51,265 nucleotides of DNA from Gemmatimonadota bacterium (GTDB lineage: Bacteria; Gemmatimonadota; Gemmatimonadetes; Longimicrobiales; Gaopeijiaceae), in the NCBI GenBank assembly GCA_039589315.1, contig JBDHHQ010000045.1:1-51265 (forward strand). Direction: 5' to 3'. The position numbers were made by a program, and so were the translations under genes. The notes beneath the pieces were generated by a model that saw nothing but the letters and a program-made list of their open reading frames with translations, was not told where the DNA came from and did no database searches. Of this stretch, positions 9,452-26,873 are shown piece after piece; position 1 is the first letter of the stretch, and every line of letters starts with the position of its first letter.

Positions 9452-9754
9452 TCACTCCTGGCGGCGCGGCGCCCGCACCAGCTCCCAGACCTCCTCCACC
9501 ACGAGCCGCCAGACGTCGTCCGGATCGACGCTCCATCGTCTCAGCGTGCGCCCTGCGTCCTCGAAGATCGCCACGTTCTCGGCCGAGTCGATTTCGAAGG
9601 CGCCGCGGAGCCCGCCGGCCCGCGGGATCCCCGCGCGCTGCATCTCCAGGTAGGTCATCTCCCGTAGAGCGGCGCGCTCGGGCGCGGTCAGTCGGGCGAC
9701 CACCCGCAGCGCCGCCTCGCCCACCGTCGTGGGCCAGCCCTCATCGGCCGGCAA
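9452..9754 (-). CDS. Hypothetical protein, DUF6794-like
   Basis: WPTTVGEAALRVVARL...DPDDVWRLVVEEVW pattern, recognised from memory. TTG start overlaps the marC stop. Confidence 0.5.
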   Translation of the reverse strand: MPADEGWPTTVGEAALRVVARLTAPERAALREMTYLEMQRAGIPRAGGLRGAFEIDSAENVAIFEDAGRTLRRWSVDPDDVWRLVVEEVWELVRAPRRQE

Positions 9755-10367
9755 CGAACTGGGCGGCGCCGCCGAGCAGAAGCTGCACGCCGATGGCCAC
9801 CAGGATCAGCCCCATCACGCGCAAGTAGGTGCCGTACCCGCCCTCGGTAAGGCGGGCGAGACGATGCGCTGAAAGGAGCGAGCCGAGCAGGATCAGGGCC
9901 ACCACGGCGACAGCGAGGAGCACCACGATGACGTGGCCCAACCCGTCCCCCCTCGCGGTCATGGCGATGACGGTCGCGATGGCCCCGGGACCGGCGACAA
10001 CGGGCAGGGCGAAGGGCACGAGGAGCGGGTCGCCGTCGGCACCGCTCGGTCTCGGCTCCTGTCCATGATCGCGCTGGACCCGAGTGGGGCTTCCGAGCAG
10101 CATTTCCAAGCCCATGATCGTGATCACCAGACCGCCGGCGACTCGGAGGGCCGAGAGCTCGATGGCGAGAGCCCGGAGGAGCCAGCCGCCCGCCAGAGCG
10201 CACACGGCCAGGATGATGTACACAACCAGGGTGGCGCGCACGGCCCCCTGACGGCGCTCCACCTCGGTCATCCCCTCGGTCAGGCGGGTGAAGACGGGTG
10301 CGGCCCCCAGCGGGTCCGTCACCGCGAGGATCGCAACCACCGCCTGAAGGAGGTATTGGCCGGTCAT
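9741..10367 (-). CDS. marC: MarC family integral membrane protein
   Basis: TDPLGAAPVF, ALRVAGG, VPFALPVVAGPGAIATVI, RVMGLILVAIGVQ; about 6 TM segments. Confidence 0.93.
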   Translation of the reverse strand: MTGQYLLQAVVAILAVTDPLGAAPVFTRLTEGMTEVERRQGAVRATLVVYIILAVCALAGGWLLRALAIELSALRVAGGLVITIMGLEMLLGSPTRVQRDHGQEPRPSGADGDPLLVPFALPVVAGPGAIATVIAMTARGDGLGHVIVVLLAVAVVALILLGSLLSAHRLARLTEGGYGTYLRVMGLILVAIGVQLLLGGAAQFVAGR

Positions 10368-10485: not shown

Positions 10486-12996
10486 CTACTCGGCCCGAAG
10501 CGCGGTGATGGGATCCACCCGCCCCGCACGCCGGGCGGGTAGGTAGGCGGCGGCCAGTGCCGTGCCCAGCAGGAGGGCGCTCCCGGCCAGGAGCGTCGCG
10601 GGATCCGAGGGCTCGACACCATGGAGGAGCCCACGGACCAGACCGGCGGCCGCGAAGGAGGTCCCCAGGCCGCCGACGAGTCCCACCATCACGGGGCCCA
10701 GGGCCTGCCGGACCACCATCCGATTGACCTCCCCGTTCCGGGCACCCAGCGCCTTGCGCACGCCGATCTCACGCGTGCGCCGGCTCACCCCCAACCGAAC
10801 GACGCTGAAGATGCCCAGGGACGCCAGCACCAGGCCCAGCACCGCCAGGGCCGCGAACATCTCGGCGTTCATCCGCTGCGCGTACAACGACCCCCGTACG
10901 ACCTCCACGTACGGCAGGGCGTTCACGACGGCCATGTGGGGCTCGAAGTCCCGAAGCCATCGCTCCATGAGGGGAATGGCGGCATACGGGTCGATGTCGA
11001 CGGCCACAACGAGCGCGCTGCCGGTGGGGTAGCGCTGCTGGAGGTAGGACAGGTAGACGGCCGGCTCGGGCTCCGCCAGGAAGCTCCGCACCCGGGTGGA
11101 GCCCACCACGCCTACCACTTCCAGCACCCTCTCGCCGTCGTCCATCTGCCACCGGAGGGTTCGCCCGATGGCGCTGCCGCCGGGGAAATGGCGCTCTGCG
11201 AGGGGCTGATTCACGACCGCGACGTCCGGGCCGCCGAGCGTGTCGAACGGCGTGAATACCCGACCCTCCTGGAGCTGGACGCCCATGGTCGCGAAGAAGC
11301 CCGGGTGTACCGGCGCGATGAGCAGTGGCACGGGCTCAGGCTCGTTCTCGACGCGGAAGGTGACGGAGGCGTGGGAGGAGAGGGGGGCATTCCCGGAGAC
11401 GGTGGCGGACCGAACCCACGGCTCACGCTCGATCTGCTCGGCCAGGGCGTGGAACCACGCCTCCCGTTCGTTAGGGGTGACCGCGGTGCTGCTCGTGGAC
11501 ACGTGGCTCGCCACCAGGGACTCGTACTCGAAGCCGGGGTCGATGCCCCCGGCCGACTCCAGGGTCCGCAGCACCAGACCCGCCACCACCAGGAGAACCA
11601 CGCACAGGGCGACCTGGGCGGCGACCAGCGTGTCGCGGGCGCTGACGGGACCGCGGCGCCGAGCGGCGCCCCCCAAGCCGCCCCCACCCTTCAGGACACT
11701 CAGCAGGTCGCCGCGCGACGCACGGATCGCGGGGAGCAACGCGGCCACCAGCCCCGTCAGGAGTGAGATCCCGAGCGCGAACAGCACCACCGTGCCGTCG
11801 ATGCTGAGCTCACGGCTGACGTTGGCTCCCCAGACGCTCGGGCGAGCGAAATAGGATCCCAACCGCGTGCTCAGAGGCAGTGCGAGGAACAAGGCGACGC
11901 CCCCCGCCACGGCCGACAGGATCACGTTCTCGGTGACGACCTGGCTGAACCGGCGGCGTGCCGACGCCCCCAGCGCGGCCTGGAGGGCGAGCTCCTGCTG
12001 GCGACCGCTGAAGACCGCCAGGAGAAGGTTGGCCACGTTGGCGCACACGAGGAAGAGGAACCCGACCGCTGCGCCGACCATGACTCGGTTGGTGGACTGC
12101 TCCGCGAGCCTGTCCCGCGGATCGATCCAGGTGCCAGGCGCCAGGCGGACACGACGCGGCTGATCCCTGGCCGGGTAGGCGTCGTCCAGGTTCCTTGCGA
12201 TGCCCGCCAGCTGCTCCTCGGCTCCATCCACCGAAACGCCGTTCGCCAACCGGGCGTAGACCCGGACCAGCGGTACGTCCCGGTCCTGGGCTCGACGGTC
12301 CCAGCCCGTGTAGCGATCCCGGAACGGGGCGATGGGAATCCACACGTGGGGCCGGAAGTCGGACGTCGACCCCAGGTGATCCGGCGACGCGACGCCCACC
12401 ACGGTGAACGGGCGGTAGTTCAGGAAGATCGTGCTCCCAAGGACGCCAGGGTCCCCATGGAACCGCTGCTGCCACCACGCGTGGGAGATCACGGCCGCCG
12501 ACTCGGCCTCGGGTCGGTCATCGTCGGGCAGAAGCCCGCGGCCCAGGGCGATCGGGACCTCGAGCAGACCGAAGTAGTTGCCGGTCACCGCCTCCAGGAA
12601 CGCGACCTCCGTCATGCTCTCGTGCCGGACGCTGGCGGCGTGATACGGTTGGACGGCAGCGACGCCCGTGAACGAGGTGCCGGACGCCCGGTAGTCGAGG
12701 AAATCCAGGAAGGAGAGGTCCATGTAGGGATCCTCTTCCTCCGAGGCGAAGAGCCGCACGAGCCCTGCGGTCTCCACACCGGGAAACGGCCGGTTGAAAG
12801 CGTTGACGTAGGTGAAGACCGCGCAGCTGGCGGACAGCCCGAGCGCCAGGATGAGCACGGCCACCGTCGGGTAGTGGGGACGCCGAACGAGCCGGCGGCC
12901 AGTTTGGCGCACCTCATCGATCAGGCCGGCGATCAGCCCCGCTCTGCCGCGCCGCGGCCCGGGGCTCCGGCCGGGAGGCGGCCCTACCCGACCCAT
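10486..12996 (-). CDS. ADOP duplicated orphan permease (2x MacB_PCD-FtsX), lacking an N-terminal prefix domain
   Basis: LVCANVANLLL, DPGF, RRTREIGVRKALGA, YLPARRAGRVDPITALRAE. Confidence 0.92.
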   Translation of the reverse strand: MGRVGPPPGRSPGPRRGRAGLIAGLIDEVRQTGRRLVRRPHYPTVAVLILALGLSASCAVFTYVNAFNRPFPGVETAGLVRLFASEEEDPYMDLSFLDFLDYRASGTSFTGVAAVQPYHAASVRHESMTEVAFLEAVTGNYFGLLEVPIALGRGLLPDDDRPEAESAAVISHAWWQQRFHGDPGVLGSTIFLNYRPFTVVGVASPDHLGSTSDFRPHVWIPIAPFRDRYTGWDRRAQDRDVPLVRVYARLANGVSVDGAEEQLAGIARNLDDAYPARDQPRRVRLAPGTWIDPRDRLAEQSTNRVMVGAAVGFLFLVCANVANLLLAVFSGRQQELALQAALGASARRRFSQVVTENVILSAVAGGVALFLALPLSTRLGSYFARPSVWGANVSRELSIDGTVVLFALGISLLTGLVAALLPAIRASRGDLLSVLKGGGGLGGAARRRGPVSARDTLVAAQVALCVVLLVVAGLVLRTLESAGGIDPGFEYESLVASHVSTSSTAVTPNEREAWFHALAEQIEREPWVRSATVSGNAPLSSHASVTFRVENEPEPVPLLIAPVHPGFFATMGVQLQEGRVFTPFDTLGGPDVAVVNQPLAERHFPGGSAIGRTLRWQMDDGERVLEVVGVVGSTRVRSFLAEPEPAVYLSYLQQRYPTGSALVVAVDIDPYAAIPLMERWLRDFEPHMAVVNALPYVEVVRGSLYAQRMNAEMFAALAVLGLVLASLGIFSVVRLGVSRRTREIGVRKALGARNGEVNRMVVRQALGPVMVGLVGGLGTSFAAAGLVRGLLHGVEPSDPATLLAGSALLLGTALAAAYLPARRAGRVDPITALRAE

Positions 12997-13024
12997 GGCC
13001 CCGGGCCGGTCCGTGCCCGTACCG

Positions 13025-15664
13025 TCACTCCTCCCTGAGCGCGGTAACCGGGTCCACCCGAAGTGCCGCCCGGGCCGGCAACCAGCACGCCAGCAGGGCG
13101 GCGAGAGCCAGGATCCCGCCCATGGCCGCGTAGGTGATGAAGTCCGTGGCTCCCACCCCGAACAGCAGGGACCGAAGGACCCGGCTCAGTGCCAATGCGG
13201 CCACGAGGCCCACGGCGATGCCCGCGCCCGCCGGCACCATCCCCTGACGGATCACCAGCCCAAGCACGTCCGGCGAGGTGGCGCCCAGCGCCACGCGCAC
13301 CCCCAGCTCCTGGGACCGCTGGCTCACCGAGTCGGCGATCACACCGTAGAGCCCTGCCAGGGCCAGGGCCAGCGCCACGCCTGCGAATACGGTCAGCAGG
13401 ATCATGGTGAACCGCCGTGAGGCGGTCGAGCTGCGCACCATCTCGTCCATCGTGCGTACCCCCGACATGGGCAGATCCGCGTCGATCTGGGCCAGCATGG
13501 CGCGGACGGGCTGCAGGGCGGCCCGGGGCTCTCCGGTCGTGTGCACGACGAAGTGGACCGGCGACCAGTCGTCCAGGTTGTACGTGAGATAGATGGCCCG
13601 GGTCTCGTCCTGACCGGGCCCTCGCTCTCTCATGTCCTCCACGACACCGACGACGGTGCCCACGCGGTCCGGTGTCACCCAGAGCTGGGCATGCTTGCCG
13701 ACGGCGCTCTCGCCGGGCCAGATCGCCTGTGCCAGGCTCTGGGAGACGACCACCTCCATGGGGCCACCCATGCCCTGGTCGCCCTCGCCCGGAATCTCGT
13801 GGCTCAGGTCCCGACCCTCCACCAGGGACAGTCCCAGCGACTGGAAGTAGTCGTCGCTGATCAGTCGCCAATCGGCCGAAACGGCGCCGCCGAACGTCTC
13901 GATGGTCTCTCCCACCGGGATGAGGCTCATGACCGTGTTGCCGCCGTCCACGGGCCGCATGTGCACGGCCGCCGCGGACTGCACCGTGGGCATCGTCCGC
14001 ATTCGGGACAGGAATTCCTCCCGAAAGGCCCGGCTCCCGGCCCGGGTGTAGGAATCCGGCAGGTTCACCTCGAAAGTCAAGCGGTTGTCCGCCTCGAAGC
14101 CGGTGTCGACGGTCTGGACTGCGATCAGGCTCCGGATGAGCAGGCCGGCCCCCACCAGGAGCACGAGGGAAAGGGCCGTCTCCGCGGCGACGAGCCAGCT
14201 GCGCAGTCGCGCCTGCGACCTGCCGCCCACACCCCCGCGGCCTCCGTCACGCAGCGTCGCGCCGAGGCCACGGAACGGAATGCGCACCGCCGGCAGCAGG
14301 CCGCCGATCACACCGGTTGCCAGCGCGACGGCGAGCGTGAACAGGAGTACCGGCCCGTTGATCTGCACGGCTTCGAGGCGGGGAATCTCGCCTGGCTCGA
14401 GCGCCACCAACGCGTACAGCCCGAGCTGGGCCACGCCGATCCCCAAGATCGCACCCGCCAGCCCCAACACCGCCGACTCGGTCAGGAGCTGGCGGATGAC
14501 CCGACCCCGCCCGGCGCCCAGTGCCATGCACATGGCCACCTGGCGTCGGCGTCCCGCCACCCGGGCCAGCAGTAGGTTGGCCAGGTTGAGGCAGGCGATC
14601 AGCAGCAGGAAGCCCACGGCGCCCATGAACACCCACAGCGAGCGTCTCAGGTCATCGGGGGCGGCCCACGTGCTGGACGGCTCCAACTGGAAGCCCATGC
14701 CCTCGTCTATGGGGGCGTTCCGGGCGGTCAGCCGCCGCGCCAGCGGGGTGAGCTCTGTCTGTGCCGCTTGAAGGCTGACATCGCCGCGAAGGCGAGCGAC
14801 CACGGCCAGGAAGTGATTGTCCCGGTTGCTCTCGGGGTTCAACGCGAGGGGAGTGTACAGCTCGTTGCGGAGCCACGGCTCGGCCTCGGGCAGCACGCCC
14901 ACGACCTCGTATCCCTCTCCGTCCAGCAGGATGACGCGGCCCTCTATGGCGGGGTCCGAGCCGAAGCGGCTCGTCCACGTCGCCTGGGACACCATCACGA
15001 CCCGACGGGCGTCCCATCCGTCCAGATCCGAGTCCCGAAAGGCGCGCCCCAGAACCGGCTTCACGCCGAGCATCTGGACGAAGTTGGGCGTGATCGGGCT
15101 CACTCCGATCCGCGCCGGCGGACCGTCTCCCGTCAGGTTCACGGTCCCGCCCCTGATGCCGCCTATGGCCTCGAAAGAGGTGCTGCTCTCCATGAGGTCC
15201 AGGAGGTTCATCTGGGAGAAGGCGAAGTGGTCCCATCCCTGGGCCATGTGGGTCTCGAAGACCTGCACGAGCCGATCGGGTTGGTGGAACGGCAGAGGGC
15301 GCAGAAGGACGGCGTCGACCACGCTGAAGATGGCCGTGCTGGCGCCGATCCCCAGCGCCAGCATGGCCAGGGCCACCGCCGTGAACCCCGGGCTCCGCCG
15401 AAGGCCGCGAACGGCCAGGCGCACGTCCCACCAGAGATCCCCCACCACCCGTCCTCCCCTGGCCGTCCGGGCCTCCTCCTTGAAGCGCTCCAGCCCTCCG
15501 AACTTCAGAAGCGCCGCGCGCCGCGCGTCTCGGGGCTTCATGCCGGCACGGATGTTGTCCTCGGTCTCCATGTCGACATGAAACCGCATCTCCTCGTCCA
15601 TTTCCCGCTCGACGCTGTCCTTCTGGAGCAGGATATGCAGCACTCGCCGCAAGCGTCGTGACAT
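13025..15664 (-). CDS. ADOP duplicated orphan permease with permease-prefix-1-like N-terminus
   Basis: EREMDEEMRFHVDMETEDNIRAGMKPRDARRAALLKFGG prefix; LLIACLNLANLLL; ELGVRVALGA; WLPARAALRVDPVTALREE. Confidence 0.94.
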   Translation of the reverse strand: MSRRLRRVLHILLQKDSVEREMDEEMRFHVDMETEDNIRAGMKPRDARRAALLKFGGLERFKEEARTARGGRVVGDLWWDVRLAVRGLRRSPGFTAVALAMLALGIGASTAIFSVVDAVLLRPLPFHQPDRLVQVFETHMAQGWDHFAFSQMNLLDLMESSTSFEAIGGIRGGTVNLTGDGPPARIGVSPITPNFVQMLGVKPVLGRAFRDSDLDGWDARRVVMVSQATWTSRFGSDPAIEGRVILLDGEGYEVVGVLPEAEPWLRNELYTPLALNPESNRDNHFLAVVARLRGDVSLQAAQTELTPLARRLTARNAPIDEGMGFQLEPSSTWAAPDDLRRSLWVFMGAVGFLLLIACLNLANLLLARVAGRRRQVAMCMALGAGRGRVIRQLLTESAVLGLAGAILGIGVAQLGLYALVALEPGEIPRLEAVQINGPVLLFTLAVALATGVIGGLLPAVRIPFRGLGATLRDGGRGGVGGRSQARLRSWLVAAETALSLVLLVGAGLLIRSLIAVQTVDTGFEADNRLTFEVNLPDSYTRAGSRAFREEFLSRMRTMPTVQSAAAVHMRPVDGGNTVMSLIPVGETIETFGGAVSADWRLISDDYFQSLGLSLVEGRDLSHEIPGEGDQGMGGPMEVVVSQSLAQAIWPGESAVGKHAQLWVTPDRVGTVVGVVEDMRERGPGQDETRAIYLTYNLDDWSPVHFVVHTTGEPRAALQPVRAMLAQIDADLPMSGVRTMDEMVRSSTASRRFTMILLTVFAGVALALALAGLYGVIADSVSQRSQELGVRVALGATSPDVLGLVIRQGMVPAGAGIAVGLVAALALSRVLRSLLFGVGATDFITYAAMGGILALAALLACWLPARAALRVDPVTALREE

Positions 15665-15676
15665 GAACCCACCCTG

Positions 15677-16033
15677 TTAAGTGGCTTCGACCGCACCGTT
15701 GCCGCTGACGCCCAACACTCGGTCCACCGCCGCGGAGAACTCTCGCCAGTGCCGGCCCTCGAGGGCCAGCTGCCGCCTGCCGGCCGGAAGCATCCTGTAG
15801 AACTTGGCTCTCCGGCCCGCCGGCGAGATGCCCCATTCTGCTTCGATCCAGCCCCGCTTCTCCAACCGGTAGAGAGCTGGATAGAGGGAACCCTGGTTCA
15901 CCTCGAGGACATCCTGCGAGATCTGGCGGATGTGCTTCGAGATGGCCCAGCCGTGCATGCGCCCGGGCCCCAGCGTCTGGAGGATCAGGAGGTCCAGGGT
16001 GCCGTGCAGCAGATCGGGCTTGGCTTTCTTCAT
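15677..16033 (-). CDS. PadR family transcriptional regulator (Acidobacterial type)
   Basis: DLLHGTLDLLILQTL, MHGWAI, GSLYPALYRLE, RRAKFY. Start taken at MKKAK. Confidence 0.95.
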   Translation of the reverse strand: MKKAKPDLLHGTLDLLILQTLGPGRMHGWAISKHIRQISQDVLEVNQGSLYPALYRLEKRGWIEAEWGISPAGRRAKFYRMLPAGRRQLALEGRHWREFSAAVDRVLGVSGNGAVEAT

Positions 16034-16095
16034 GGACGCCTCGCGGTCACGATTCGGTGCCGTGGCCGCAGCATGTCGCACCGGTCGATGCGATA

Positions 16096-16168
16096 CCTTG
16101 GTAATCGACACCACGACACCGTAAGCTCACCAGCTTGTTGTCGATTGTCAAGGCATAGGGCATCGACA
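16096..16168. promoter_or_regulatory. Putative PadR operators (inverted pair plus a third partial copy)
   Basis: CCTTGGTAATCGACA (16096-16110) and TGTCGATTGTCAAGG (16139-16153) are reverse complements at 13/15 positions; TAGGGCATCGACA at 16156-16168. Confidence 0.6.
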
Positions 16169-16356
16169 CACCGAAGGACCGCGCGGAGCGTGCGATGGAG
16201 CGGCGATCCCTCGCGATGCACCCCTCGTCAGGGCCCTCCTGAGCGAGGGTCACCTCCGTCGGCTCTTGGGTCAGGCCATCCCTCCCCGGACTCACCCCGT
16301 GATCTCGGGCGAGGTTCGCCCGGGACCGTCCCGAGGGCTCAGGCGCATCGGCGGCG

Positions 16357-19131
16357 CTACTCGGCCGACAGGGCCACGATGGGGTCGACCCGTCCCGCCC
16401 GACGGGCGGGCAGGTAGCTCGCTCCCAGGGCCACCGCCGTCAATCCGGCTGCAACCACGAGGTAGGTCAGGGGATCCGTTGCGTTTACGCCGAACAGCAG
16501 GCCCGCCATGAAGCGGGTCAGACTCACCGCCAGCCCGAGACCGATCGCCACTCCGGTCAGGGAGAGGAGCAGCCCCTGGCGGAGCACCATCTTCTTGATG
16601 TCCCGGGTTCGCGCACCGAGGGCCAGACGGACGCCCAACTCCCGGGTGCGCTGGCTCACGGCGTAGGAGATGACGCCGTACACGCCGATGAGCCCGAGCA
16701 GGAGAGCTGCCGCCGAGGCGACGGTGAGCAGCACCATGGTGAACGACGTCTGGGCCACGGACTGAGCCATGAGGCCCGACAGGGGTCGCACGCCGCGGAG
16801 TGGAGAGTTGGGCGCTACCTCCCAGATCGCTTCCCGCACGTCATCGAGGAATCCCGGCGTGCCTACACGTCCGCTCCGGATGGCGTAGCCCATGCCCCGC
16901 CAGGTCTGGACCGAGTCGGGCGCCCATCCTTCCCAGAAGGCCCGGGTCACCTGTGGCCAGTACACCATGAGCGGGGGATCCTGGTTCAGCCCCTGGTAGC
17001 GCACGTCCGCGGCGACGCCCACGACCTCGTGCCACCGTGGCGGGTCCGGGCGAGCGGCCACGCGTCCACCGATCGCCGCCTGGGGGGACCCCCAATACTC
17101 TCGCGCCAGGCTCTCGGAGACGATGGCACCGGGGAAACGGTTGTGGACCTCGTCCCACGTGAAGCTCCGCCCCGCCAGGAGGGGGATACCCAGGCTCTCG
17201 AAGTAGCCCTCGCCGATCCAGTTGTGGCGACGGGACGGTGAGCCCCCACCGGGCGGCGCGATGCCATCCACGTAGAAGGGGTTCACGTTACCGGAGGCGT
17301 CCATGGGTATGCGCGTCGCCATGGCCACCGAAGCCACGCCCGGCACCTGCTCCAGCCGACGGGCGATGCGCTCGAAGGCCAGGGCGGTTTCCTCGAGGTC
17401 CGGAATCTCCGAGCCCGGAATGGATATGCGAAGGGCCAGGATCTCCTCGGGCCCGAAGAACCCCGGATCCACGTCTTTGAGGGTCTGCATGCTGCGCAGC
17501 ATGAGGCCGGAGGCGACGAGCAGGACCAGCGCCAGCGCCATCTGGCTGATGGCCAGGACGTTTCTGGCCCGATTCTGCGCCCGCCCTCCCAGGCCGCGCG
17601 TACCCCCCTGCTTGAGCGCGTTCACCAACCCGCCGCGACCGTGCTTCAGGCTCGGAACGAGCCCGAAGAGCAGGCCCGTCCCCACCGATACGGCCACCGT
17701 GAACAGCATGACCGCCGAACTGAGGGACACGTTCTGGAGACGGGGGAGCTCCGCCGGACCGGCGGCAACGAGAAGTCGGAGGCCCCCGAAAGCCAGCGCC
17801 AGACCGACGGCCCCGCCAAGCACTCCGAGAAGAAGACTCTCCCTCATGTACTCCCACCCGATGCGGCGGCGGCTCGCGCCCATGGCCGTCCGTACCGCCA
17901 TCTCGGTTTCTTTGCCCTCGGCCCGGACGAGGAACAGGTTGGCCACGTTGGCGCACGCGATGAGCAGGACGACGCTCACGCCGCCCAGGAGAATCCAGAG
18001 GAGGTTCGCCACCGAGCCCACGAGACGGTCCTTCAAGGGCTGCAGCACGACCGCGTATGCCGCCGGATCGCTGGAGCTCGAGACGGGGCCGCCCGGGAAC
18101 TTCTCCCAGGCCATTGGCAACATGCGGGCGACGTCGGCTCGGGCCTGGTCCAGCGTGACTCCATCCTCGAGGCGCGCCACCGCGCCGAAGCCGATGTTGC
18201 CCACGAAGACCGTGGAGCGGTCGAAGCGGAGCGGAAGGACCAGGGACGGGGTCTGCTCGAGCCCACCCAGCTCCGGGGGCAGCACGCCTACGATCTCCCG
18301 CGTCACCCCGTTGACGCGTAGGGTCCGGCCGATGACCTCGGGGTCGGCGCCGAATCGTGTCTCCCAATATCCGGAGCTCAGGAGTACGGTCTGGGGCGCC
18401 CCAGGCACCTCGTCCTGCGGCGTGAAGCTCCGACCCAGCACGGGCTCGAGCCTGAGGGCCCGGAAGACTCCGCTCGTAGCGAACAGCGCCCGCAGTGAGG
18501 CCGGATCGCCCACGCCGGTTACGGCGACGGCCCCGGACGAGTACATGCCGAGATCCTCGAAGACCCGGTTCTCGTCCTCGTACGTGAAGTGCCAGGCCGC
18601 ACATTGGCCCACGTCGTCGAGTCCGCGGCCGGGTGCAGCGTGATGGATGGACACGAGCCTGTCGGCGTCGTCGTACGGGAGAGGCCGGAGCACGATGGCG
18701 TCGGCCAGCGTGAAGATGGCGGTCGTGGCACCGATGCCCAGGGCGAGCACCACGATGACGATCCCCGCGAAGAGGGGCCGCTGGCGGATGGCACGGAATG
18801 CCAGGCGGAGATCGCGCAGCGCGTCGGCCACGACGGTCAGTCGCCCACCCTTGCCGCGAACCACGTCCTCTCGACGTTCGATCCACCGCCCGGCCCGTGC
18901 GCCCGGCTCCAGGGGCTGGGAGCGGCCCAGCTCCCTGGCGGCGGTGTCCGTGTCCCCCAGCTCGAGCACCGCGAGGGCCTCCGCCTCTTCGGGAGTGGCG
19001 CCCCGGATGAGGGCCTCGTTGTAGAGGTCCGCCAGATGGTCGGCGAGCTCGACCAGCATGCGCTCGTCCCGGTGATTCCGCACGCCCTCGAGGTTCAGCT
19101 GCTCCCGCAGAAAGCCCTTCCAGTCACGCAT
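16357..19131 (-). CDS. ADOP duplicated orphan permease with helical N-terminal prefix
   Basis: MRDWK...ELADHLADLYNEALIRGATPEEAEALAVLELGD prefix; LLIACANVANLFL; QRTRELGVRLALGA; RVDPIVALSAE. Confidence 0.94.
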   Translation of the reverse strand: MRDWKGFLREQLNLEGVRNHRDERMLVELADHLADLYNEALIRGATPEEAEALAVLELGDTDTAARELGRSQPLEPGARAGRWIERREDVVRGKGGRLTVVADALRDLRLAFRAIRQRPLFAGIVIVVLALGIGATTAIFTLADAIVLRPLPYDDADRLVSIHHAAPGRGLDDVGQCAAWHFTYEDENRVFEDLGMYSSGAVAVTGVGDPASLRALFATSGVFRALRLEPVLGRSFTPQDEVPGAPQTVLLSSGYWETRFGADPEVIGRTLRVNGVTREIVGVLPPELGGLEQTPSLVLPLRFDRSTVFVGNIGFGAVARLEDGVTLDQARADVARMLPMAWEKFPGGPVSSSSDPAAYAVVLQPLKDRLVGSVANLLWILLGGVSVVLLIACANVANLFLVRAEGKETEMAVRTAMGASRRRIGWEYMRESLLLGVLGGAVGLALAFGGLRLLVAAGPAELPRLQNVSLSSAVMLFTVAVSVGTGLLFGLVPSLKHGRGGLVNALKQGGTRGLGGRAQNRARNVLAISQMALALVLLVASGLMLRSMQTLKDVDPGFFGPEEILALRISIPGSEIPDLEETALAFERIARRLEQVPGVASVAMATRIPMDASGNVNPFYVDGIAPPGGGSPSRRHNWIGEGYFESLGIPLLAGRSFTWDEVHNRFPGAIVSESLAREYWGSPQAAIGGRVAARPDPPRWHEVVGVAADVRYQGLNQDPPLMVYWPQVTRAFWEGWAPDSVQTWRGMGYAIRSGRVGTPGFLDDVREAIWEVAPNSPLRGVRPLSGLMAQSVAQTSFTMVLLTVASAAALLLGLIGVYGVISYAVSQRTRELGVRLALGARTRDIKKMVLRQGLLLSLTGVAIGLGLAVSLTRFMAGLLFGVNATDPLTYLVVAAGLTAVALGASYLPARRAGRVDPIVALSAE

Positions 19132-19471
19132 GGCTGACTCCGATCACCTCGTTCACCACCGCGGTGAAGGACGTCCACTCCTGACGCCGCAGGGCCAAGA
19201 TGTCGCGGCCCTTGTCGGTCAGGGTGTAGTAGCAACGCCTCCGCTGGCCCGCCTTCTCCACCCACCGTCCCTTGATCCACCCTTTGCCCTCCATCCGGTA
19301 GAGGGCCGAATAGAGGGTGGAGACCTTGAACTCCAGCTTCCCTCCGGACCTGAGCTCGATCAGCTTGCCGATCTCGTATCCGTGACGCGTCTCGGCGTCC
19401 AGCACGGACAGGACCAACAGCGCCATGCTGCCCCGCTTCAGGTCGGCACTGAACACGTTCGGCATCGTCAT
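19124..19471 (-). CDS. PadR family transcriptional regulator
   Basis: LKRGSMALLVLSVL, RHGYEI, TLYSALYRME, RRRCYYTLT. Overlaps the downstream permease start by 8 nt. Confidence 0.95.
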   Translation of the reverse strand: MTMPNVFSADLKRGSMALLVLSVLDAETRHGYEIGKLIELRSGGKLEFKVSTLYSALYRMEGKGWIKGRWVEKAGQRRRCYYTLTDKGRDILALRRQEWTSFTAVVNEVIGVSHA

Positions 19472-19509
19472 CCTCTCGGGTGGAGCTGCCCCTCACCTTT
19501 CGCCACGCG

Positions 19510-19530
19510 ATACTTCGCATAGCGAAATAT
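19510..19530. promoter_or_regulatory. Putative PadR operator (palindrome)
   Basis: ATACTTCGCATAGCGAAATAT, with TTCGC-N3-GCGAA core and matching flanks, about 40 nt upstream of padR. Confidence 0.65.
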
Positions 19531-19602
19531 AAGAAGTGGATGGCCGACAGGCCAGTGCCTCGGCGACGAGGTGGTGGTTGAAGCCTCGGGCTGGGACCTC
19601 GG

Positions 19603-22428
19603 CTACTCCTGGCGGAGCGTGCGCATCGGATCGATGCGTGTGGCGCGACGGGCGGGGAGCGCGCTGGCCAAGAGGGCGGCCAGGAGCAGCAGACCCAGCC
19701 CCGCGGCGAAAGCCAGCGGGTCGAGGGGACTCACGCCGGCCAGCACGCTTCGCACCGCCCGGGCCGCGGGTAGCGCGATCAGGACGCCCAGCGCGAGCCC
19801 CAGCAACGCGAGCTTCATCCCGTCCCGAACGATGGCTCGCAGGACCTGCCCACGCTCGGCGCCGATGGCCATGCGGACCGCCATCTCACGGGTCCTTTCG
19901 GTGACGGCGACCGAGACGATGCCGTAGATCCCGATCACGGCCAGGAAGAGCCCGAACGCGCCTCCCCAGGTGAGGACACGGGAGGCGACTCGGAGGTGTA
20001 CGAACTGGATCGACAGCTGGCTGGCGTAGGTCGAAGGAGGAAGGAGCTGTACCTCACCGCCCTCCGGCCGGACGTGATCCCGAAGCACCGAGATCATGGC
20101 TTCCGCGCTCTCCACGCCCTTGACGGACACCGCCACCGTCGACGCGTAGTCTTGATACAGGGACGTCCAGAAGTACGGTGTCGGTGCTTCGTCGAAGTCC
20201 CCGTACTTCCCGTCGCTGGCGATGCCGATGACCTGGAAGGTCCTGGGCTCGGGAGCGAGACCGTGGCGCGCGGCACCGGGGTCGGTGACCTCGAACCGTC
20301 GGCCGAGGGCGTCTTCCCCGGGCCAGAATCGGTCCGCCAGAGTCTGGTTCACCACCGCCACCAGAGGTGCGTTCTGGTCGTCGCCCTCCTGGAACGACCT
20401 CCCGCGCAGGAGTGGAATCCTCAGCATCTTCAGGTATCCGGGAGTCACGGCGTTGCGGAAGTACGTCTCTTCCTCGTCCAGCCGCGGATCCGCGCCGTCC
20501 ACCGTCACGTCGACCGTGGACCCGAGGAGAAGCAGCGTCAGCTCCAGACTCCGGGACAGCTGGACGTCCGCCACACCCGGCACGGCGGCCAAACGGGAGC
20601 GGAGCTCCCTGTAGTATTGGATGCCTTGCTCGGGTCCATGGTCCTGGGGGTCGAGTGTCTTCGTCGCCACGGCGACCCGCTCGGGGTCGACCCCGAGCTC
20701 GGTCCGTGTAGCGCTGCCGAGCGCGCGCACGAACAGCGTCGCCCCCACGAGCAGCACCAGCGACGCTGCGCACTGGATGACGACAAGGGCGTCCCGCGCG
20801 TTGATGCGCCCCTTCCGACGGATCCGACCGTCGCCCTTCAGTGCACTCAGGATCTCCGGCCGTGAGCCCTGTAGCGCGGGAAGCAGGCCGAATACCAGGC
20901 TGGCTCCTATGGCACTGGCCACAGCGAAGGTCAGTACCCGGCCGTCCAGATCGATGGAGAGGCGGATCGGAACATTCATCGGGAGGGATGCGGCACCCAC
21001 GAGGCCCACGATCCAAGCGGCGACCAGCAGGCCCACGAGGCCCGCGGCGACTCCCGGAATCAGGGCCTCCGTCAGGAGCATGGCGATGAGCCGGCGGCGG
21101 CCCGCCCCCAGGGCAGCGCGTACGGCGATCTCCCGGCTTCGTCGATTGGCCCGGGCCAAGAAGAGGCTCGTCACGTTGGAGCAGGCGATCAGGAGGATGA
21201 GGCCGGTGATCCCGACGAAGAAGACGCCGATGCCGCCCAGGAGGGTCCGGGTCCCGGGCTTCAGGCGTGAGTCCCTCTCCGATACGGCGCTGAGCGCCCG
21301 GGCCCTGCCCCGGGAGTCCGTCCAGGCACCGGGATACTCCTCGGCCAACCGGTCCTCGAGCACGGAGGCCTGAGCGCGCAGGTTGTCGAGCGAAGCGTCG
21401 GCGCGCAGGCGACCCAGGATCAAGAAGCGTCGTGCGCCGCGATCCCGCAGTCCGGCGTTCCGCAAGCTCTCCGGGCCCTCGGTGTTGCCCAGCGGCACCC
21501 AGACGTCGGGTTCCAGAGGGGCTCGCCGACTCACGACCCCGTCGGGGGCGACGCCCACGACCGTGTGTTCACGTCCGTTCAGCCGAACGGTCCCGCCCAC
21601 GACGCCCGGATCGCCGCCGAACTGCTCGACCCACAGATCATGGCCGAGCACTGCAACCGGCAGGGCAGCCCCCGCTTGCCCCTCCCCGGGCGCGAACTCC
21701 CGTCCGATCACGGGCCGGATCCCCGTGACGGCGAAGTAGTTGGCCGTGACCTCCTCGGCCAACAAGGCCCGGGGCTCCAGGGTCCCTCCGAGGGTCAGGG
21801 TGCGGATCGCGATCGCCGCGGCGTCCTGCATCGACTCGATCTCCCGCACGGCGTCCTCGTAGTCCGGGAACGACGAGAGCCCGTACGCGTCGCCGTCGTC
21901 CTCGCTCGTGTAGAGCGTCACCAGTCGGTCCGGCTGAGACAGGCCCACCGGAGCCCGGAACAGCAGGGAGTTGACCACCGCGTAGGCCGCGGTGACCGCT
22001 CCGATCCCCAACCCCAGGGAAAGGACCGTAACCGTCAGCGCCAGCGGTGACCTGCGAAGGCTCCGAAACCCGAAGCGCAGATCGCCCAGAAAGGTCATCA
22101 CGGGGTTGCCCCTCCGTCGCGCCATCCGGTGCCGGTCCTCGGCCGAGCCGAGCGCTCCTTTCACTCGCTGCGCCCCTCCAGCGACTTGTCCGGGCAGCGG
22201 GCGCGAGAGAACGGCGATGCGGGAGCGGAGGCCGGGCAGCACCGACCGGAGCACCTGTCGCCGGTACCATGAACGAGCCGACCCGGCGCCGTCACGAGCC
22301 ACCCGCTGCTCGAGCTCCTCTTCCAGGTCGGCCAGCGCGAACCGGCGGTCTGCCGCAGGGAGCACGACCGACAGGAGCGCTCGGGCGATGCGGGGCGCGG
22401 GGGTGGAGGGGTCGAGCCCCGCGCTCAC
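19603..22428 (-). CDS. ADOP duplicated orphan permease with permease-prefix-2-like N-terminus
   Basis: PRIARALLSVVLP...LADLEEE...ARSWYRRQVLRS prefix; LLIACSNVTSLFL; ERTREMAVRMAIGA; RIDPMRTLRQE. GTGA overlap with padR. Confidence 0.93.
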   Translation of the reverse strand: MSAGLDPSTPAPRIARALLSVVLPAADRRFALADLEEELEQRVARDGAGSARSWYRRQVLRSVLPGLRSRIAVLSRPLPGQVAGGAQRVKGALGSAEDRHRMARRRGNPVMTFLGDLRFGFRSLRRSPLALTVTVLSLGLGIGAVTAAYAVVNSLLFRAPVGLSQPDRLVTLYTSEDDGDAYGLSSFPDYEDAVREIESMQDAAAIAIRTLTLGGTLEPRALLAEEVTANYFAVTGIRPVIGREFAPGEGQAGAALPVAVLGHDLWVEQFGGDPGVVGGTVRLNGREHTVVGVAPDGVVSRRAPLEPDVWVPLGNTEGPESLRNAGLRDRGARRFLILGRLRADASLDNLRAQASVLEDRLAEEYPGAWTDSRGRARALSAVSERDSRLKPGTRTLLGGIGVFFVGITGLILLIACSNVTSLFLARANRRSREIAVRAALGAGRRRLIAMLLTEALIPGVAAGLVGLLVAAWIVGLVGAASLPMNVPIRLSIDLDGRVLTFAVASAIGASLVFGLLPALQGSRPEILSALKGDGRIRRKGRINARDALVVIQCAASLVLLVGATLFVRALGSATRTELGVDPERVAVATKTLDPQDHGPEQGIQYYRELRSRLAAVPGVADVQLSRSLELTLLLLGSTVDVTVDGADPRLDEEETYFRNAVTPGYLKMLRIPLLRGRSFQEGDDQNAPLVAVVNQTLADRFWPGEDALGRRFEVTDPGAARHGLAPEPRTFQVIGIASDGKYGDFDEAPTPYFWTSLYQDYASTVAVSVKGVESAEAMISVLRDHVRPEGGEVQLLPPSTYASQLSIQFVHLRVASRVLTWGGAFGLFLAVIGIYGIVSVAVTERTREMAVRMAIGAERGQVLRAIVRDGMKLALLGLALGVLIALPAARAVRSVLAGVSPLDPLAFAAGLGLLLLAALLASALPARRATRIDPMRTLRQE

Positions 22429-22769
22429 GGCGTCCCTCCGGGATCTCCCGCCAGCTGGAGCCCCTCCATCATCCGTCCGAGCATCTCCGCCGAGTGGGCG
22501 ACCGCGTCTTCTCCGGCCGGAGTCAATCGGCAGTACTTGCGTGGTCGACCCCGCCGACCGGGCTCGGGATCCGCCTTCTGTGTCAGGAGGTAGCCCTTGG
22601 CTTCCACGCGTCCCAGCGCGGCGTAGAGCGCGCCGATGGAGACCGGCCGCCCGGTCCGCGCCTCGATCTCCTGGCGCACCGAAGCGCCGTAGGCGCCGTC
22701 ACCCAGGCGCGCGACAGCGAGCATCACGTACAATTCGAACTCGGGAAGGAATCGACCAGGCACGTGCAC
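22425..22769 (-). CDS. PadR family transcriptional regulator
   Basis: EFELYVMLAVARL, AYGASVRQEIE, SIGALYAALGRVEAKGY, GRPRKY. Confidence 0.93.
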   Translation of the reverse strand: MHVPGRFLPEFELYVMLAVARLGDGAYGASVRQEIEARTGRPVSIGALYAALGRVEAKGYLLTQKADPEPGRRGRPRKYCRLTPAGEDAVAHSAEMLGRMMEGLQLAGDPGGTP

Positions 22770-22786
22770 CGACCTGTAGTGGGTTA

Positions 22787-22807
22787 TTTATTCTACAAAT
22801 GAATAAA
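22787..22807. promoter_or_regulatory. Putative PadR operator (perfect 7-7-7 inverted repeat)
   Basis: TTTATTC-TACAAAT-GAATAAA, an AT-rich patch immediately upstream of padR. Confidence 0.6.
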
Positions 22808-22936
22808 AACCCTCTGAGCCGCCGGGTCAACCCTCCGTGGTTGGAGCGGCCGCCGGGGCGCGCCGCGACACGACCGGCGACCCACGCCGCACCCCTTGGG
22901 GTGCCGGCAATGGCCCCTGCAGGTACGGTCCCGGGC

Positions 22937-23431
22937 TCAGCCCGGAGTCGCCTCGACAGTCTTCTTGCCGAGCTGCCGCCCGAGGATGCCACCGGCCACG
23001 GCGTTCGCGGCCAGAACACCCACGAGTCCGGGCGTCGTAACCGGAGGCCAAACCAGCACGAAGGCGGTGAACAGCACGACCGTGCAGACCGTGAGGCCGA
23101 AGATCATGCCGGTGATGGGGTTTGCCGGGATCCTGTAACGGGCGAACAGCTTGGCAGCCACGACCCCCAACGCCGCGAAGACCAGGAAATGGAAGCCGGT
23201 GTAGGCCACCAGCCTGAACAAGGCGGTGGCCACTGCCGTCAGCCGCGTGCCGGCGGACTCCGACAGGCCCAGCCCCGGACCGCCGACACCGAACAGGACC
23301 CGAGAGAACTCCATCGGCGTGGCCAGGGGGCTCATGGTGACGACGTCGTAGACGAAAAAGAGCACGATGACGGAGAGCCCCGCCTGAAGACCCGCGCCGG
23401 CGCCAACCAGGACCGTGTGCTTACGTTCCAT
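22937..23431 (-). CDS. Hypothetical membrane protein (about 4 TM)
   Basis: GAGGAGG before MERKHTVL; hydrophobic segments; YTGFH motif; overlaps the preceding gene. Confidence 0.75.
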   Translation of the reverse strand: MERKHTVLVGAGAGLQAGLSVIVLFFVYDVVTMSPLATPMEFSRVLFGVGGPGLGLSESAGTRLTAVATALFRLVAYTGFHFLVFAALGVVAAKLFARYRIPANPITGMIFGLTVCTVVLFTAFVLVWPPVTTPGLVGVLAANAVAGGILGRQLGKKTVEATPG

Positions 23432-23828
23432 CAGTGCCTCCTCGTTTGATGCCTCCCAGGACGGCCGGGCCAATCAGGGAGACGACCAGGACCAGGACCC
23501 ATAGCCGGCCCTCGAACACGTTGTAGTCCGCCAGAAGGACGGACCAGGGTACCCCGAGCACGTAGTGCTGGAAGAGGAACTCGAAGCTGGCGGTGAGCGC
23601 CACCCAGAAGACGCCGATGCGCACCAGGGAGCCTCGGTCGAGCGCCGGGCACATCCACGCGACGGTCCGCCAGATCAGCCACACGAAGACTGCGAGAAAG
23701 GCCAGCGTGCCTACCACGTGGGCCGCCTGGCTCCCCAGGCTGGGGAGAAGCCACGCCGTCCGCAGGACTCCCAGGGCGAACGCCGCCAGCAGTGTCAGCA
23801 GCCAGACTGAAAGCGCTTTGACATACAT
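23421..23828 (-). CDS. Hypothetical membrane protein (about 4 TM)
   Basis: AAGGGG RBS; FEFLFQHYV...LLADYNVFEGRLW; 27 nt downstream of nosY. Confidence 0.8.
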   Translation of the reverse strand: MYVKALSVWLLTLLAAFALGVLRTAWLLPSLGSQAAHVVGTLAFLAVFVWLIWRTVAWMCPALDRGSLVRIGVFWVALTASFEFLFQHYVLGVPWSVLLADYNVFEGRLWVLVLVVSLIGPAVLGGIKRGGTDGT

Positions 23829-23855: not shown

Positions 23856-24650
23856 TCAAAAGTCCTTCTTGCCGAACAGCCGGACCCCTACCGCCAGTGG
23901 CGCCACCACCCACGCCGTCAGCGCGGTCACGGCCACGGCGGCCCCCACCGGACCACCGAAGAACTTCTGGAACACGGCTCCCGTGTACCCCATGAGCGCA
24001 GACACGTCGAAGTTCATCAGGAGGACGACACGGGCGAGGTCGATGGGGTTCAACAGCATCATCCCCAAGACCGGCTTCTCCAGGGGGTACGCGGAAAAGG
24101 CGTTCACCGCCATGAGCACGGCCGCGTCGTAAAGGACGGCGAGAACCAGCCAGAGCACCAGCGCCGTCGCCAGGCCCCGGACCCGGTCCTCCAGGCGCAC
24201 GGCGATCACGAAGGCCAGGGCCACGAAGATGAAGGTCAGGAACGCGCCCGCGCCTGCCAGGAGGGCCAGCGTCCCGGTCAACTCGGGCGCCCGCAGGGCT
24301 CCGTGCCAGGCGGCCGGAAGCAGGATTCCCACCAGGACGGCCAGCGACAGGGGCACGGCCAGCCCCAGATACAGACCGCCGAACAGCTCCCGACGACCCA
24401 CCGGGTGGGAGAGCAGCAGCTCGTTGAATTCCCGGGAGTTGTAGACGTACACCGTTCCCAGGATCACGCTGACCAGGGGCACGAGGAACAGGATCACGTT
24501 GACCATGCTCAGAAGGGCCCTCGGGCCCACACCGCTGAAGCGGAACAGGGCCTCCGTGGCGAGCAGCAGAAACAGCCCGTAGACCGCGACCGCGCGTGCC
24601 CTCGCCACGTCCCGCAGCTCGTATTTGAATACCTTCGCCAGCGAGCTCAC
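23856..24650 (-). CDS. nosY: Nos ABC transporter permease
   Basis: Multi-TM protein; YNSREFNELLLSHP, LNPIDLAR, SALMGYTGAVF, KKDF C-terminus; GTGA overlap with nosF. Confidence 0.92.
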   Translation of the reverse strand: MSSLAKVFKYELRDVARARAVAVYGLFLLLATEALFRFSGVGPRALLSMVNVILFLVPLVSVILGTVYVYNSREFNELLLSHPVGRRELFGGLYLGLAVPLSLAVLVGILLPAAWHGALRAPELTGTLALLAGAGAFLTFIFVALAFVIAVRLEDRVRGLATALVLWLVLAVLYDAAVLMAVNAFSAYPLEKPVLGMMLLNPIDLARVVLLMNFDVSALMGYTGAVFQKFFGGPVGAAVAVTALTAWVVAPLAVGVRLFGKKDF

Positions 24651-25360
24651 GGCGTCCCCCCCTCCGTCATCAGGCGGGCCACCGCCTCCTCCAGGTCTTC
24701 TCCCCCGGCGTGGGTCAGCAGATCGGTGACCGGGCCCTGGAACCGGACCTTCCCGTCCAGGAGGAAGACGATGTCGTCGGACAGGTCCTCGAGCTCCGCC
24801 ATGATGTGCGACGTCAGGATGAAGGTGCGCCCCGCGTCTCTCTCCCGCCGGATCTTGTCCTTGAGAATCCGGGCCGCCACGGGATCCAGTCCGGCAGTGG
24901 GCTCGTCCAGAATCAACAGCTCGGCGCCGAAACGGAATGCGATGGCCGCGTTGAGCTTCTGCCGGGTGCCCCCCGAAAGCGTCCGGAACGGCTTGCCGAG
25001 CTCCTTTTCGAGTCCGAACTGCTCCACCAGCTCGCCGTCCTGCACCCCCGGCGCGTTCCGCAGGTCCGCGAGCATGTTCAGGAGCTCCCGCCCGCTCAGG
25101 TTTTCCGGGAAACGGACGATCTGAGGCATGTAGCCGATGCGTCTCCGGTACGCCGAGTCGCCGTTCAGGGCGTGGCCGGCGAAGGAGATGACGCCGGCAT
25201 CCGGCTTGACCAGCCCGAGAACGGCCTTGATGAGCGTGGTCTTGCCCGACGCGTTCGGGCCCACGATGGCCGTCACTCTTCCGGGCCGTATGTCGACGTC
25301 GACGCCATCCAGCACCTCGAGGGCTCCGAAACGCTTGTGGAGGTCACGGATCTCGATCAT
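24647..25360 (-). CDS. nosF: Nos ABC transporter ATP-binding protein
   Basis: GPNASGKT, GYMPQ, LSGGTRQK, LILDEPTAGLDP; lies between nosD and nosY. Confidence 0.93.
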   Translation of the reverse strand: MIEIRDLHKRFGALEVLDGVDVDIRPGRVTAIVGPNASGKTTLIKAVLGLVKPDAGVISFAGHALNGDSAYRRRIGYMPQIVRFPENLSGRELLNMLADLRNAPGVQDGELVEQFGLEKELGKPFRTLSGGTRQKLNAAIAFRFGAELLILDEPTAGLDPVAARILKDKIRRERDAGRTFILTSHIMAELEDLSDDIVFLLDGKVRFQGPVTDLLTHAGGEDLEEAVARLMTEGGTP

Positions 25361-26823
25361 TGGATTCTCTGCATGCTCGGCCGCTCGTCGACGAGGGTTT
25401 CCGGCGTCAGGGCCGGTACCACACGCTCCGCGGCGTCCAGGAGTGCCACGAGGAAGCTGCGCAAGAGGACCAGGGACGGCTCGTTCTGCTCCACGATGAG
25501 CGAGAAGAGCCGTACGGGTCGGAAGGGCACGTCACCCACACCGTCACGATCCAGGTCATAGCCCCGGTAGTCGTCCCAGTAGTTGCCCTCGAACGTGCTG
25601 TAGGAGCGACGGCTGTTGGTGGTGACATCGAACGAGTTGCCCACGAAGTTGTTGCGTGTGAACACGTTGTCCAGAGAGTTCGCCATGATCTTCACGGCCC
25701 ACCCGTTTTGGACGAAGTCGTTGTCCTGGACCTGCAGTCGGTTCGAGCCCTCTGCGAGGATCCCGATCGAGTTCCGGTGGAACAGGTTTCCAGAGAGCTC
25801 GGAGTCGCGGATGTCCTTCATGAGGATCCCGAAGGATGCGTTGCCCCAATTGTGGTCGAAGACGTTGTTCCGCATGGTCACGTCCTCGGTGTACATGACG
25901 GCGACACCCGCACCGTTCTCGGCAAACACGTTGTTCGAGTAGGCGCAACGGTCGGAGAACATGAAGTGTAGGCCGTACCGCAGGTTGCCCCTACTCTCGT
26001 TGCCCTCGATCCTGCTGTCCTCCACGAACTCGAAGTAGATACCGTCCCGGTGCCCCTCGATCCGGTTTCCACGTATCGTCACGTTCCGCGAGTACCACAG
26101 GTGGATGCCGTTCGCCGACTGGCTCTCCCGCGTGGCCTGGGCGGTCAACTCGTTGTTCAGGATGTCGCACGACCCGCTGTTGGCCAGATAGATGCCGAAG
26201 AAGGCGTCCTCGAACCGGTTGTCCGCAATCCGGCAGCCGAGGCTGTCCTCCACGCGGATCGCCGCCCGGTCCTCCACGAACGACACACCCACGTCCTTGA
26301 AGACGAAGCCGGAGACGGAAACGTCGTCTGCGACGATGGTCATGAGCTGACGCTCGCCTTCCCCGTCGAGGATCGGCCGACCCTGCCCCACAAGCTCCAC
26401 CGGCTTCTCCACGGTCAGCGTAGGCTCGCGGTACACGCCGGACTTGACCACGATGCGGTCTCCGCTCCGGGCCAGCTCCAGGGCTCGCGTGATCGTGGAA
26501 AGGTCCGTGCCCGGCTCCACGACCCACTCCGTGCCGGGCACCCCTGCGCCCGCCACGGCAGGGCTCTGATCGGTCGCCTCGGCCTGCGCGGGGGAGGAAG
26601 CGACGCCCGATGCCGCGCCGGCCGTCGACGTGACGAACGCGCCGGACGCATCTGAGGCCACGCCGTGCGGGAGGGGCACGGCCGCCGCCAGCGCCTCGCG
26701 ACGAATCGCGTCCGTCGACGTGCCCCGGCCCGGCACGGCCAGGGCGAGCCCGCCGAGAGTCACGATCAGCGCCGCGAAGGGGTGGCGACGGAACGTAAGC
26801 CCTTCAGGGAGACGTGGTCTCAT
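25357..26823 (-). CDS. nosD: Nitrous oxide reductase maturation protein (beta-helix)
   Basis: GNRIEGHRDGIYFEF, LRYGLHFMFS, GVAVMY, GNYWDDYRGYDLDRDGVGDVPFRP. Start uncertain (26823 or 26841). Confidence 0.95.
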   Translation of the reverse strand: MRPRLPEGLTFRRHPFAALIVTLGGLALAVPGRGTSTDAIRREALAAAVPLPHGVASDASGAFVTSTAGAASGVASSPAQAEATDQSPAVAGAGVPGTEWVVEPGTDLSTITRALELARSGDRIVVKSGVYREPTLTVEKPVELVGQGRPILDGEGERQLMTIVADDVSVSGFVFKDVGVSFVEDRAAIRVEDSLGCRIADNRFEDAFFGIYLANSGSCDILNNELTAQATRESQSANGIHLWYSRNVTIRGNRIEGHRDGIYFEFVEDSRIEGNESRGNLRYGLHFMFSDRCAYSNNVFAENGAGVAVMYTEDVTMRNNVFDHNWGNASFGILMKDIRDSELSGNLFHRNSIGILAEGSNRLQVQDNDFVQNGWAVKIMANSLDNVFTRNNFVGNSFDVTTNSRRSYSTFEGNYWDDYRGYDLDRDGVGDVPFRPVRLFSLIVEQNEPSLVLLRSFLVALLDAAERVVPALTPETLVDERPSMQRIQ

Positions 26824-26873
26824 GGCTCGCCCCTGCGGCATCTACGCCGGTCGAGCATGCCCACCCGGACATG

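Follow-up and report, generated by a model that had tools for sequence, protein, structure and literature searches.

Why should one bacterial locus carry three padR genes side by side, each followed directly by its own gene for an ADOP permease with a helical N-terminal prefix (here called the head)? The arrangement is found in a 51,265-nucleotide stretch of a Gemmatimonadota genome (contig JBDHHQ010000045.1 of assembly GCA_039589315.1, the whole of which is called the window below), and a preliminary description of this DNA had proposed that each head binds its cognate PadR, so that each module would be an insulated membrane-to-DNA circuit. Our analysis of the window, the remaining genome and related loci elsewhere indicates that the modules are a real, well-supported variant of the already proposed HAAS-PadR system. 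On grounds of sequence and analogy we consider it probable, if some way from certain, that the head is a co-regulator of PadR, likely an anti-repressor that would relieve the predicted repression of the operon by its own PadR once the permease detects a signal from the envelope.

All three modules lie on the minus strand, and the gene boundaries first reported for them are correct: padR1 (16033-15677) ends 12 nt before ADOP1 (15664-13025), padR2 (19471-19124) overlaps ADOP2 (19131-16357) by 8 nt, and padR3 (22769-22425) overlaps ADOP3 (22428-19603) by 4 nt. The permeases are 879 residues (ADOP1, with eight transmembrane (TM) segments predicted by hydropathy), 924 residues (ADOP2) and 941 residues (ADOP3) long, and score 845, 815 and 719 bits with TIGR03434, for which the cut-off is 622. 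The permease set was incomplete in the preliminary description, which overlooked a fourth, tandem ADOP on the same strand (ADOP0; 12996-10486; 675.9 bits), a duplicated MacB/FtsX-type permease with neither a prefix match nor a padR gene. ADOP0 begins 28 nt behind ADOP1, with which it is probably co-transcribed. Thus, four of the four window permeases exceed the ADOP cut-off, and each has two stretches of MacB_PCD plus FtsX. The three PadRs all match Pfam PadR and are as divergent as had been claimed (pairwise identities of 38%, 28% and 28%). PadR1, with the recognition helix NQGSLY, falls in clade B of the tree and is the only one to pass TIGR03433 (padR_acidobact; 138.4 against a cut-off of 101.8); its nearest relatives, at 84-85% identity, come from Gemmatimonadota assemblies. 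PadR2 (clade B2; FKVSTLY; Pfam PadR 72.5) scores slightly below that cut-off at 98.5, and PadR3 (clade D by tree; VSIGALY; Pfam PadR 42.6) scores 27.9. The GTG at 22763 may be the true start of padR3, judging from the homologue L148.

In the headed permeases the first TM-like window is at residue 98, 124 and 129, respectively, and the head is therefore N-terminal to TM1. The sequence motifs quoted earlier for the three heads are present, but the heads are not three separate families. Heads 1 and 2 both belong to perm_prefix_1 (NF038403, cut-off 30) and only head 3 differs; the window heads are two families in three subtypes. Head 1 (residues 15-65; 15470-15622), which has an acidic helix, scores 49.1 with NF038403, and head 2 (residues 18-68; 18928-19080), a separate subtype that is also found behind relatives of PadR2, scores 31.9. 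Head 3 (residues 12-67; 22228-22395) resembles perm_prefix_2 (NF038404), with scores of 26.4-31.9 that stay below the cut-off of 35.

The type to which heads 1 and 2 belong (head B) is connected to HAAS (PF22564) through a bridge of actinomycete partner proteins with a head-B-like domain (hhalign 94%, E 9e-8), two of two of which passed the Pfam HAAS cut-off when tested. Direct Pfam HAAS matches to the head 1 type are weak, being limited to 10 of 60 members with E values no better than 1.5e-4, and a direct Pfam HAAS search of window heads 1 and 2 gave no match. The head 3 type (head D) aligned at only 1% with HAAS and at 0.7% with the head 1 type; weak Pfam HAAS hits at E 0.02-0.03 were seen in 3 of 26 members, and window head 3 was aligned over its first two helices. 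Heads A and D are related to each other (hhalign 87%) and head C weakly to them (5-7%); apart from the weak Pfam hints, none of the three aligned with HAAS or head B (≤1%). The GxP kink in the third helix, a HAAS feature, is lacking, as the head 1 type keeps FG, mostly without the P, and head 3 has no GxP. In single-chain models both types are helical, the head 1 type alone folding as two helices and head 3 as three. Searches of the PDB with both models, together with a profile search, found nothing at E ≤ 0.001; fold searches with helical models this short are uninformative. In the ESM Atlas, head 3 retrieved nameless proteins of 60-62 residues that resemble head D alone, in clusters of 70-87 members, which may be free-standing heads or contig fragments.

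The evidence that carries our interpretation comes from a census of the 6.67-Mb assembly (95% complete, 5% contaminated). It holds 99 ADOP-like open reading frames (ORFs), in 95 of which it was possible to place the beginning of the permease body, and 73 PadRs that form clades A, B/B2, C and D plus one outlier. Sixty-five ADOPs stand directly behind a padR (21 A, 10 B, 2 B2, 6 C and 26 D), and most of these pairs are joined by start-stop overlaps of -4, -1 or -8 nt. Eight padRs are unpaired, two of them with a matching head in a truncated ORF behind. Similar expansions occur in several relatives, with a match above the cut-off in 14 of 21 genomes. When the nearest neighbour of each head was taken without regard to PadR (B2 being counted with B), it came from the same PadR clade for every one of the 65 heads, compared with a mean of 19.2 and a maximum of 37 in 20,000 shuffles. 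The expected covariation of PadR subtype with head type was thus borne out, and among 300 assignable pairs from foreign loci there was no case of a padR followed by the head of another clade. The permease bodies behaved otherwise: the nearest neighbour of the body shared the PadR clade in 12 of 61 cases, as expected by chance (18.7 by shuffling), and in the body tree all clades are intermingled with head-less copies. A helical domain accompanies the stand-alone padR throughout, a head being present in 65 of 65 padR-linked ADOPs and in 0 of the 22 unlinked ones (of 30 unpaired) whose contig extends 700 nt or more upstream. One of the 22, on C47, retains a frameshifted remnant of a clade-A head. 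The other eight unpaired ADOPs are close to the end of a contig; heads are present in two.

The search models for foreign loci were built from this genome only, and the loci are kin that were picked by similarity, so that the following counts are not independent. Matching heads were found behind 191 of 223 clade B padRs (26 without a head, 6 too close to the locus end), behind 84 of 106 clade D padRs (15 without, 7 too close to the end) and in 25 of 29 clade A loci. Among clade D loci from metagenomes, head D was present in 63 of the 73 with room for it, and in 49 of these 63 it was carried by a protein other than an ADOP, with two to four hydrophobic or TM segments in 36 of the 37 complete ones. 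Because matched heads occur on exchanged bodies and on unrelated membrane proteins, padR, head and operator form the conserved unit, for which the membrane body is exchangeable.

Several foreign loci deserve separate mention. In L161, L170 and about 35 similar loci, a protein of about 215 residues with 3-4 TM segments carries head D behind a clade D padR; a Pfam search of two such proteins gave no match. The ATG of this family is placed 7-8 nt behind a -10-like box, which suggests that the mRNA is leaderless. L049, L050, L053, L056, L062 and L098, from several Gemmatimonadota, have a stand-alone clade B padR that possesses a single operator and is followed by no head gene; these PadRs may act in trans. 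Natural PadR-head fusions were considered as evidence and rejected: a head or permease start is present in 31 of 69 longer proteins, nearly all of which are single-member records with frameshift-like junctions.

Each padR had also been said to possess its own, unrelated inverted repeat. An inverted-repeat-like site does lie upstream of each gene, but the sites are not wholly unrelated, as a 4-5-4 pseudo-palindrome describes op1 as well as op2, and TTC-N7-GAA is common to op2 and op3. The predicted operators of padR1 are op1a (16136-16152; core CTTG-N5-CGAC), which includes a TTGACA -35-like hexamer at 16146-16151, and op1b (16095-16111; core GTCG-N5-CAAG), a site type that recurs in homologues. 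Predicted operator op2 (19510-19528; core TTCG-N5-CGAA) is unique in the genome at up to three mismatches, and op3 (22789-22805; TATTC-N7-GAATA) is predicted 20 nt behind a TTGACC -35-like hexamer (22825-22830). Each window operator is the sole match in the genome at up to two mismatches. Matrices built from homologous foreign loci were scored against 1500 random windows, and among the three window promoters each gave its best score on its own site. The PadR1 matrix (25 foreign NQGS-type loci) scored 17.7 on op1, above all 1500 random windows, versus 3.7 and 8.5 for the padR2 and padR3 promoters. The PadR3 matrix (41 clade D loci) scored 11.6 on op3, a value reached by 1 of the 1500, and -0.7 and 1.0 on the other two promoters; it partly scores AT-richness (36 of 73 promoters exceeded the 99th percentile) and is therefore no measure of cross-talk. 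The right half of op2 is kept in the two nearest PadR2 homologues, L127 and L145. A matrix from broader PadR2 relatives fits op2 poorly (5.0), because those PadR subtypes use another site. Most of op3 is kept in the nearest PadR3 homologue, and a near-identical site is found in L148. The operators thus follow the PadR subtype. The homologous sites overlap -35 or -10-like boxes, a placement that fits autorepression by PadR.

Within clade B, the half-sites could be compared with the second residue of the recognition helix. TGT-type halves were found with Q in 82 of 132 cases and with E or D in 0 of 64; held-out loci gave 115 of 238 for Q and 2 of 44 for E or D, and a site could be located in 85 of the 122. 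The matrix for the E/D group did not converge in register. The split, which corresponds to about two changes on the tree, is a lead toward a recognition code, short of proof.

How might these parts work together? In the mechanism that we propose, a PadR dimer would repress its own operon, and the head would contact PadR, perhaps at the face formed by helix 2 and the recognition helix. The contact would be gated by the periplasmic or membrane state of the permease, with derepression as the probable outcome. The direction of the effect is taken from Listeria, where LftS, a DUF1048 protein, is required for derepression of LftR (bioRxiv 2023.07.27.550809; PMC4517056; statements on the literature here and below refer to the portions of the papers available to us). 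A contact is also suggested, and only suggested, by residue covariation. In 186 clade B pairs the mutual information between PadR and head peaked at z 11.3, compared with 7.9 when the pairing was shuffled and 6.6 when the permease body took the place of the head, and the peak involves PadR positions 33, 34, 46 and 47. Of the 130 pairs that could be scored, 125 have complementary charges at PadR position 33 and head position 36, each of which changed 8-9 times.

Several observations weigh against the head acting as an anti-repressor. Independent contrasts for PadR33/head36 were not significant (median sign-test p 0.125 on 8 pairs with the broader coding), the covariation of positions 47/33 depends on two changes and fails phylogenetic correction, and in clade D (104 pairs) the mutual information did not rise above shuffles (6.6 versus 7.2). 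Within clades, the similarity of PadRs did not correlate significantly with that of heads in Mantel tests (r of -0.01, 0.22 and 0.13 for A, B and D; p of 0.53, 0.10 and 0.14). Trp96, which we take to be the drug-binding residue of LmrR, is invariant in clade B PadRs. Behind 45 of the foreign padRs no head was detected, and padR and head are adjacent DNA, for which linkage alone favors co-inheritance. Finally, effects of LftS in Listeria have also been seen without LftR (PMC4517056).

One alternative is that PadR senses a small molecule directly, as LmrR does, and controls its own operon, which would encode an ordinary transporter; the head would then be a membrane anchor, a docking site for a shared ATPase or a device for translational coupling, and would be matched to PadR by tight linkage only. 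The invariant Trp96, the overlapping or abutting genes and the loss of significance of the covariation after tree correction are all in keeping with this alternative, as are the close matches of PadR to solved PadR-family structures, among which we presume LmrR to be. We nevertheless regard direct sensing as unlikely. Head-less ADOPs are common, so the body does not need a head, and small, unrelated membrane proteins encoded behind the same PadR clades carry these heads too. Furthermore, PadR3 has Met at the position of the C-terminal Trp of clade D, and no binding of aurantimycin to LftR or LftS is seen in vitro (PMC11970672).

According to another alternative, the head binds PadR constitutively or as a co-repressor, and the pair provides feedback on copy number or assembly instead of sensing a signal from outside. 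Start-stop overlaps would suit 1:1 synthesis of the two proteins, and the internal starts described below, present in 33 of 65 paired ADOPs, could tune the ratio of head to body. Bodies with large periplasmic MacB domains have been exchanged under the same cassette, however, which would be expected of a body that provides the input, and derepression of LftR is signal-dependent and needs LftS (bioRxiv 2023.07.27.550809). We give this explanation a somewhat smaller chance than direct sensing.

Complete one-to-one insulation of each module at the level of both protein and DNA, as was originally envisaged, is improbable: the window operators are unique at up to two mismatches, operators differ among paralogues inside a clade and subclade-level matching of PadR and head exists in clade B, but the within-clade Mantel tests were not significant, heads 1 and 2 are one family and two sites elsewhere in the genome point to cross-talk. 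The first of these sites is the promoter of a second NQGS-type padR (C128:10860-11234), which scores 17.2 with the PadR1 matrix, close to the 17.7 of op1, and this PadR likely cross-talks with module 1. The second is a further exact copy of the 13-nt core of op3, the only one in the genome (0.004 expected), at C47:11604, upstream of the padR-less ADOP with the clade-A head remnant noted above (ORF 11634-14381), which also has an intact internal ribosome site; this permease is a possible trans target of PadR3. Under our preferred reading, in which the head is an anti-repressor, matching at the protein level would be by clade or subclade, since no significant PadR-head correlation exists within clades, and most of the specificity of a module would reside in its operator, with some cross-talk.

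A further feature of the paired genes is a possible start site for translation between head and body. ADOP3 has a predicted internal ribosome site at the junction (22096-22116; GGAGG followed by GTG ATG, Met111), and ADOP1 has a candidate one (15443-15459; GGGGAGG and GTG) that was found in 1 of 50 homologues and is thus poorly conserved; ADOP2 has none. Across the genome, a Shine-Dalgarno match with ATG or GTG at the junction was present in 33 of the 65 paired ADOPs, compared with 0-5 of 65 in nine control windows, and AGG/AGA account for 43 of 93 Arg codons at the junction versus 278 of 2876 in the body. In foreign loci such starts occurred in 7 of 109 and 2 of 58 for clade B, in 7 of 20 and 3 of 16 for clade D and in 8 of 24 of a clade A set (controls, 0); outside this genome the feature is lineage- and clade-dependent. 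The internal starts may be a relic of cassette shuffling, or may give head-less isoforms, in which case a head-less permease would be made beside the full-length form.

An ABC ATPase gene lies within 1.5 kb of only 1 of 95 ADOPs, on the opposite strand, and it is not among the top LolD-type matches. The genome has about eight LolD/MacB-type ATPases (seven at ≥165 bits and a fragment), several of them beside their own permeases. On the evidence of this incomplete assembly, the ADOPs would either share an ATPase in trans or work without one. In the window itself, just downstream of the ADOP cluster and on the other strand, the region 3831-9185 (+) encodes a LolA-like protein, a pair of single MacB/FtsX permeases together with a LolD-type ATPase of their own, and an unassigned protein of 418 residues, by sequence a complete ABC system. 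A broader proposal is that the genome holds a parallel signalling kit of three parts, in which about 65 PadRs each have an operator of their own in a readable code, two unrelated head families serve as clade-matched anti-repressors, and the cassette has moved among 95 bodies that serve mainly as sensors (given the roughly eight ATPases), with internal starts making head-less versions. We offer this only tentatively, as less likely than not.

Other genes of the window are as follows. Upstream of padR3, a hydrophobic protein of 178 residues without a family match is encoded at 22937-23473 (-), and downstream of ADOP0 there is a MarC-family membrane protein gene (9741-10367, -). The region 23856-30497 (-) includes a nitrous oxide reductase gene (28197-30497, -; nos propeller matches), followed by genes that resemble nosL, nosD, nosF and nosY, named from their translations by eye. 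A 2869-residue protein with glucoamylase-like and GH94 domains is encoded at 37666-46275 (-), and three tandem-Usp genes are located at positions 2869, 46263 and 47472.

The HAAS-PadR dyad was proposed from gene-neighborhood support alone, with a helical domain signalling to PadR and with FtsX/MacB-PCD fusions (ACO32024.1) among the listed examples (Ravi et al., mSystems 2024, PMC11237479; bioRxiv 2020.09.24.301986). The window modules share with it a stand-alone PadR coupled to a helical N-terminal domain of a multi-TM protein. Modules 1 and 2 share homology with it, short of the GxP feature, whereas module 3 would work in a like manner with a head that, like those of clades A and C, belongs to a family not detectably HAAS. 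Clade matching, body exchange, operators and internal starts do not figure in the accessible text of that account. The NCBIfam models TIGR03433, TIGR03434, NF038403 and NF038404 recover the four permeases, PadR1 and heads 1 and 2 at their cut-offs but leave PadR2, PadR3 and head 3 below them, and the family descriptions assign no function. Listeria LftR/LftS is similar in that a PadR repressor is co-encoded with a HAAS-type partner, DUF1048 having been merged into HAAS by Ravi et al. (PMC11237479), and in its short, partly palindromic operator; unlike the heads, LftS carries no fused permease, the LieAB transporter has its genes elsewhere, and the pair exists as a single copy, against 65 here. 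Listeria PadRs autorepress, and LstR-Lmo0421 and LltR-Lmo0600 are autorepressing PadRs upstream of membrane proteins, Lmo0600 having DUF1700 (PMC6624303). Their partners, however, are RodA-like and DUF1700 proteins rather than ADOPs, and the part of that paper available to us reports no contact of the head-PadR kind. The literature searched, which excluded subscription papers and bioRxiv supplements, held nothing on ADOP function, clade matching, body exchange, operators, internal starts or a tested HAAS-PadR complex. Relative to it, the second head family that is not detectably HAAS, the exchangeable bodies, the operator code and the internal starts are new.

How small PadRs without a known ligand are switched off is at issue, as the aurantimycin result cited above illustrates. 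The genome provides a ready panel for this question, with four PadR clades, matched heads of 55-60 residues that lend themselves to production as peptides, and head-less permeases and non-cognate heads as natural negative controls. The PadR/operator pairs are, in addition, a natural library for the winged-helix recognition code and for orthogonal repressors. If the head does act as an anti-repressor, the finding would give a function to ADOP, which is among the largest uncharacterized paralogue expansions in these soil and sediment phyla.

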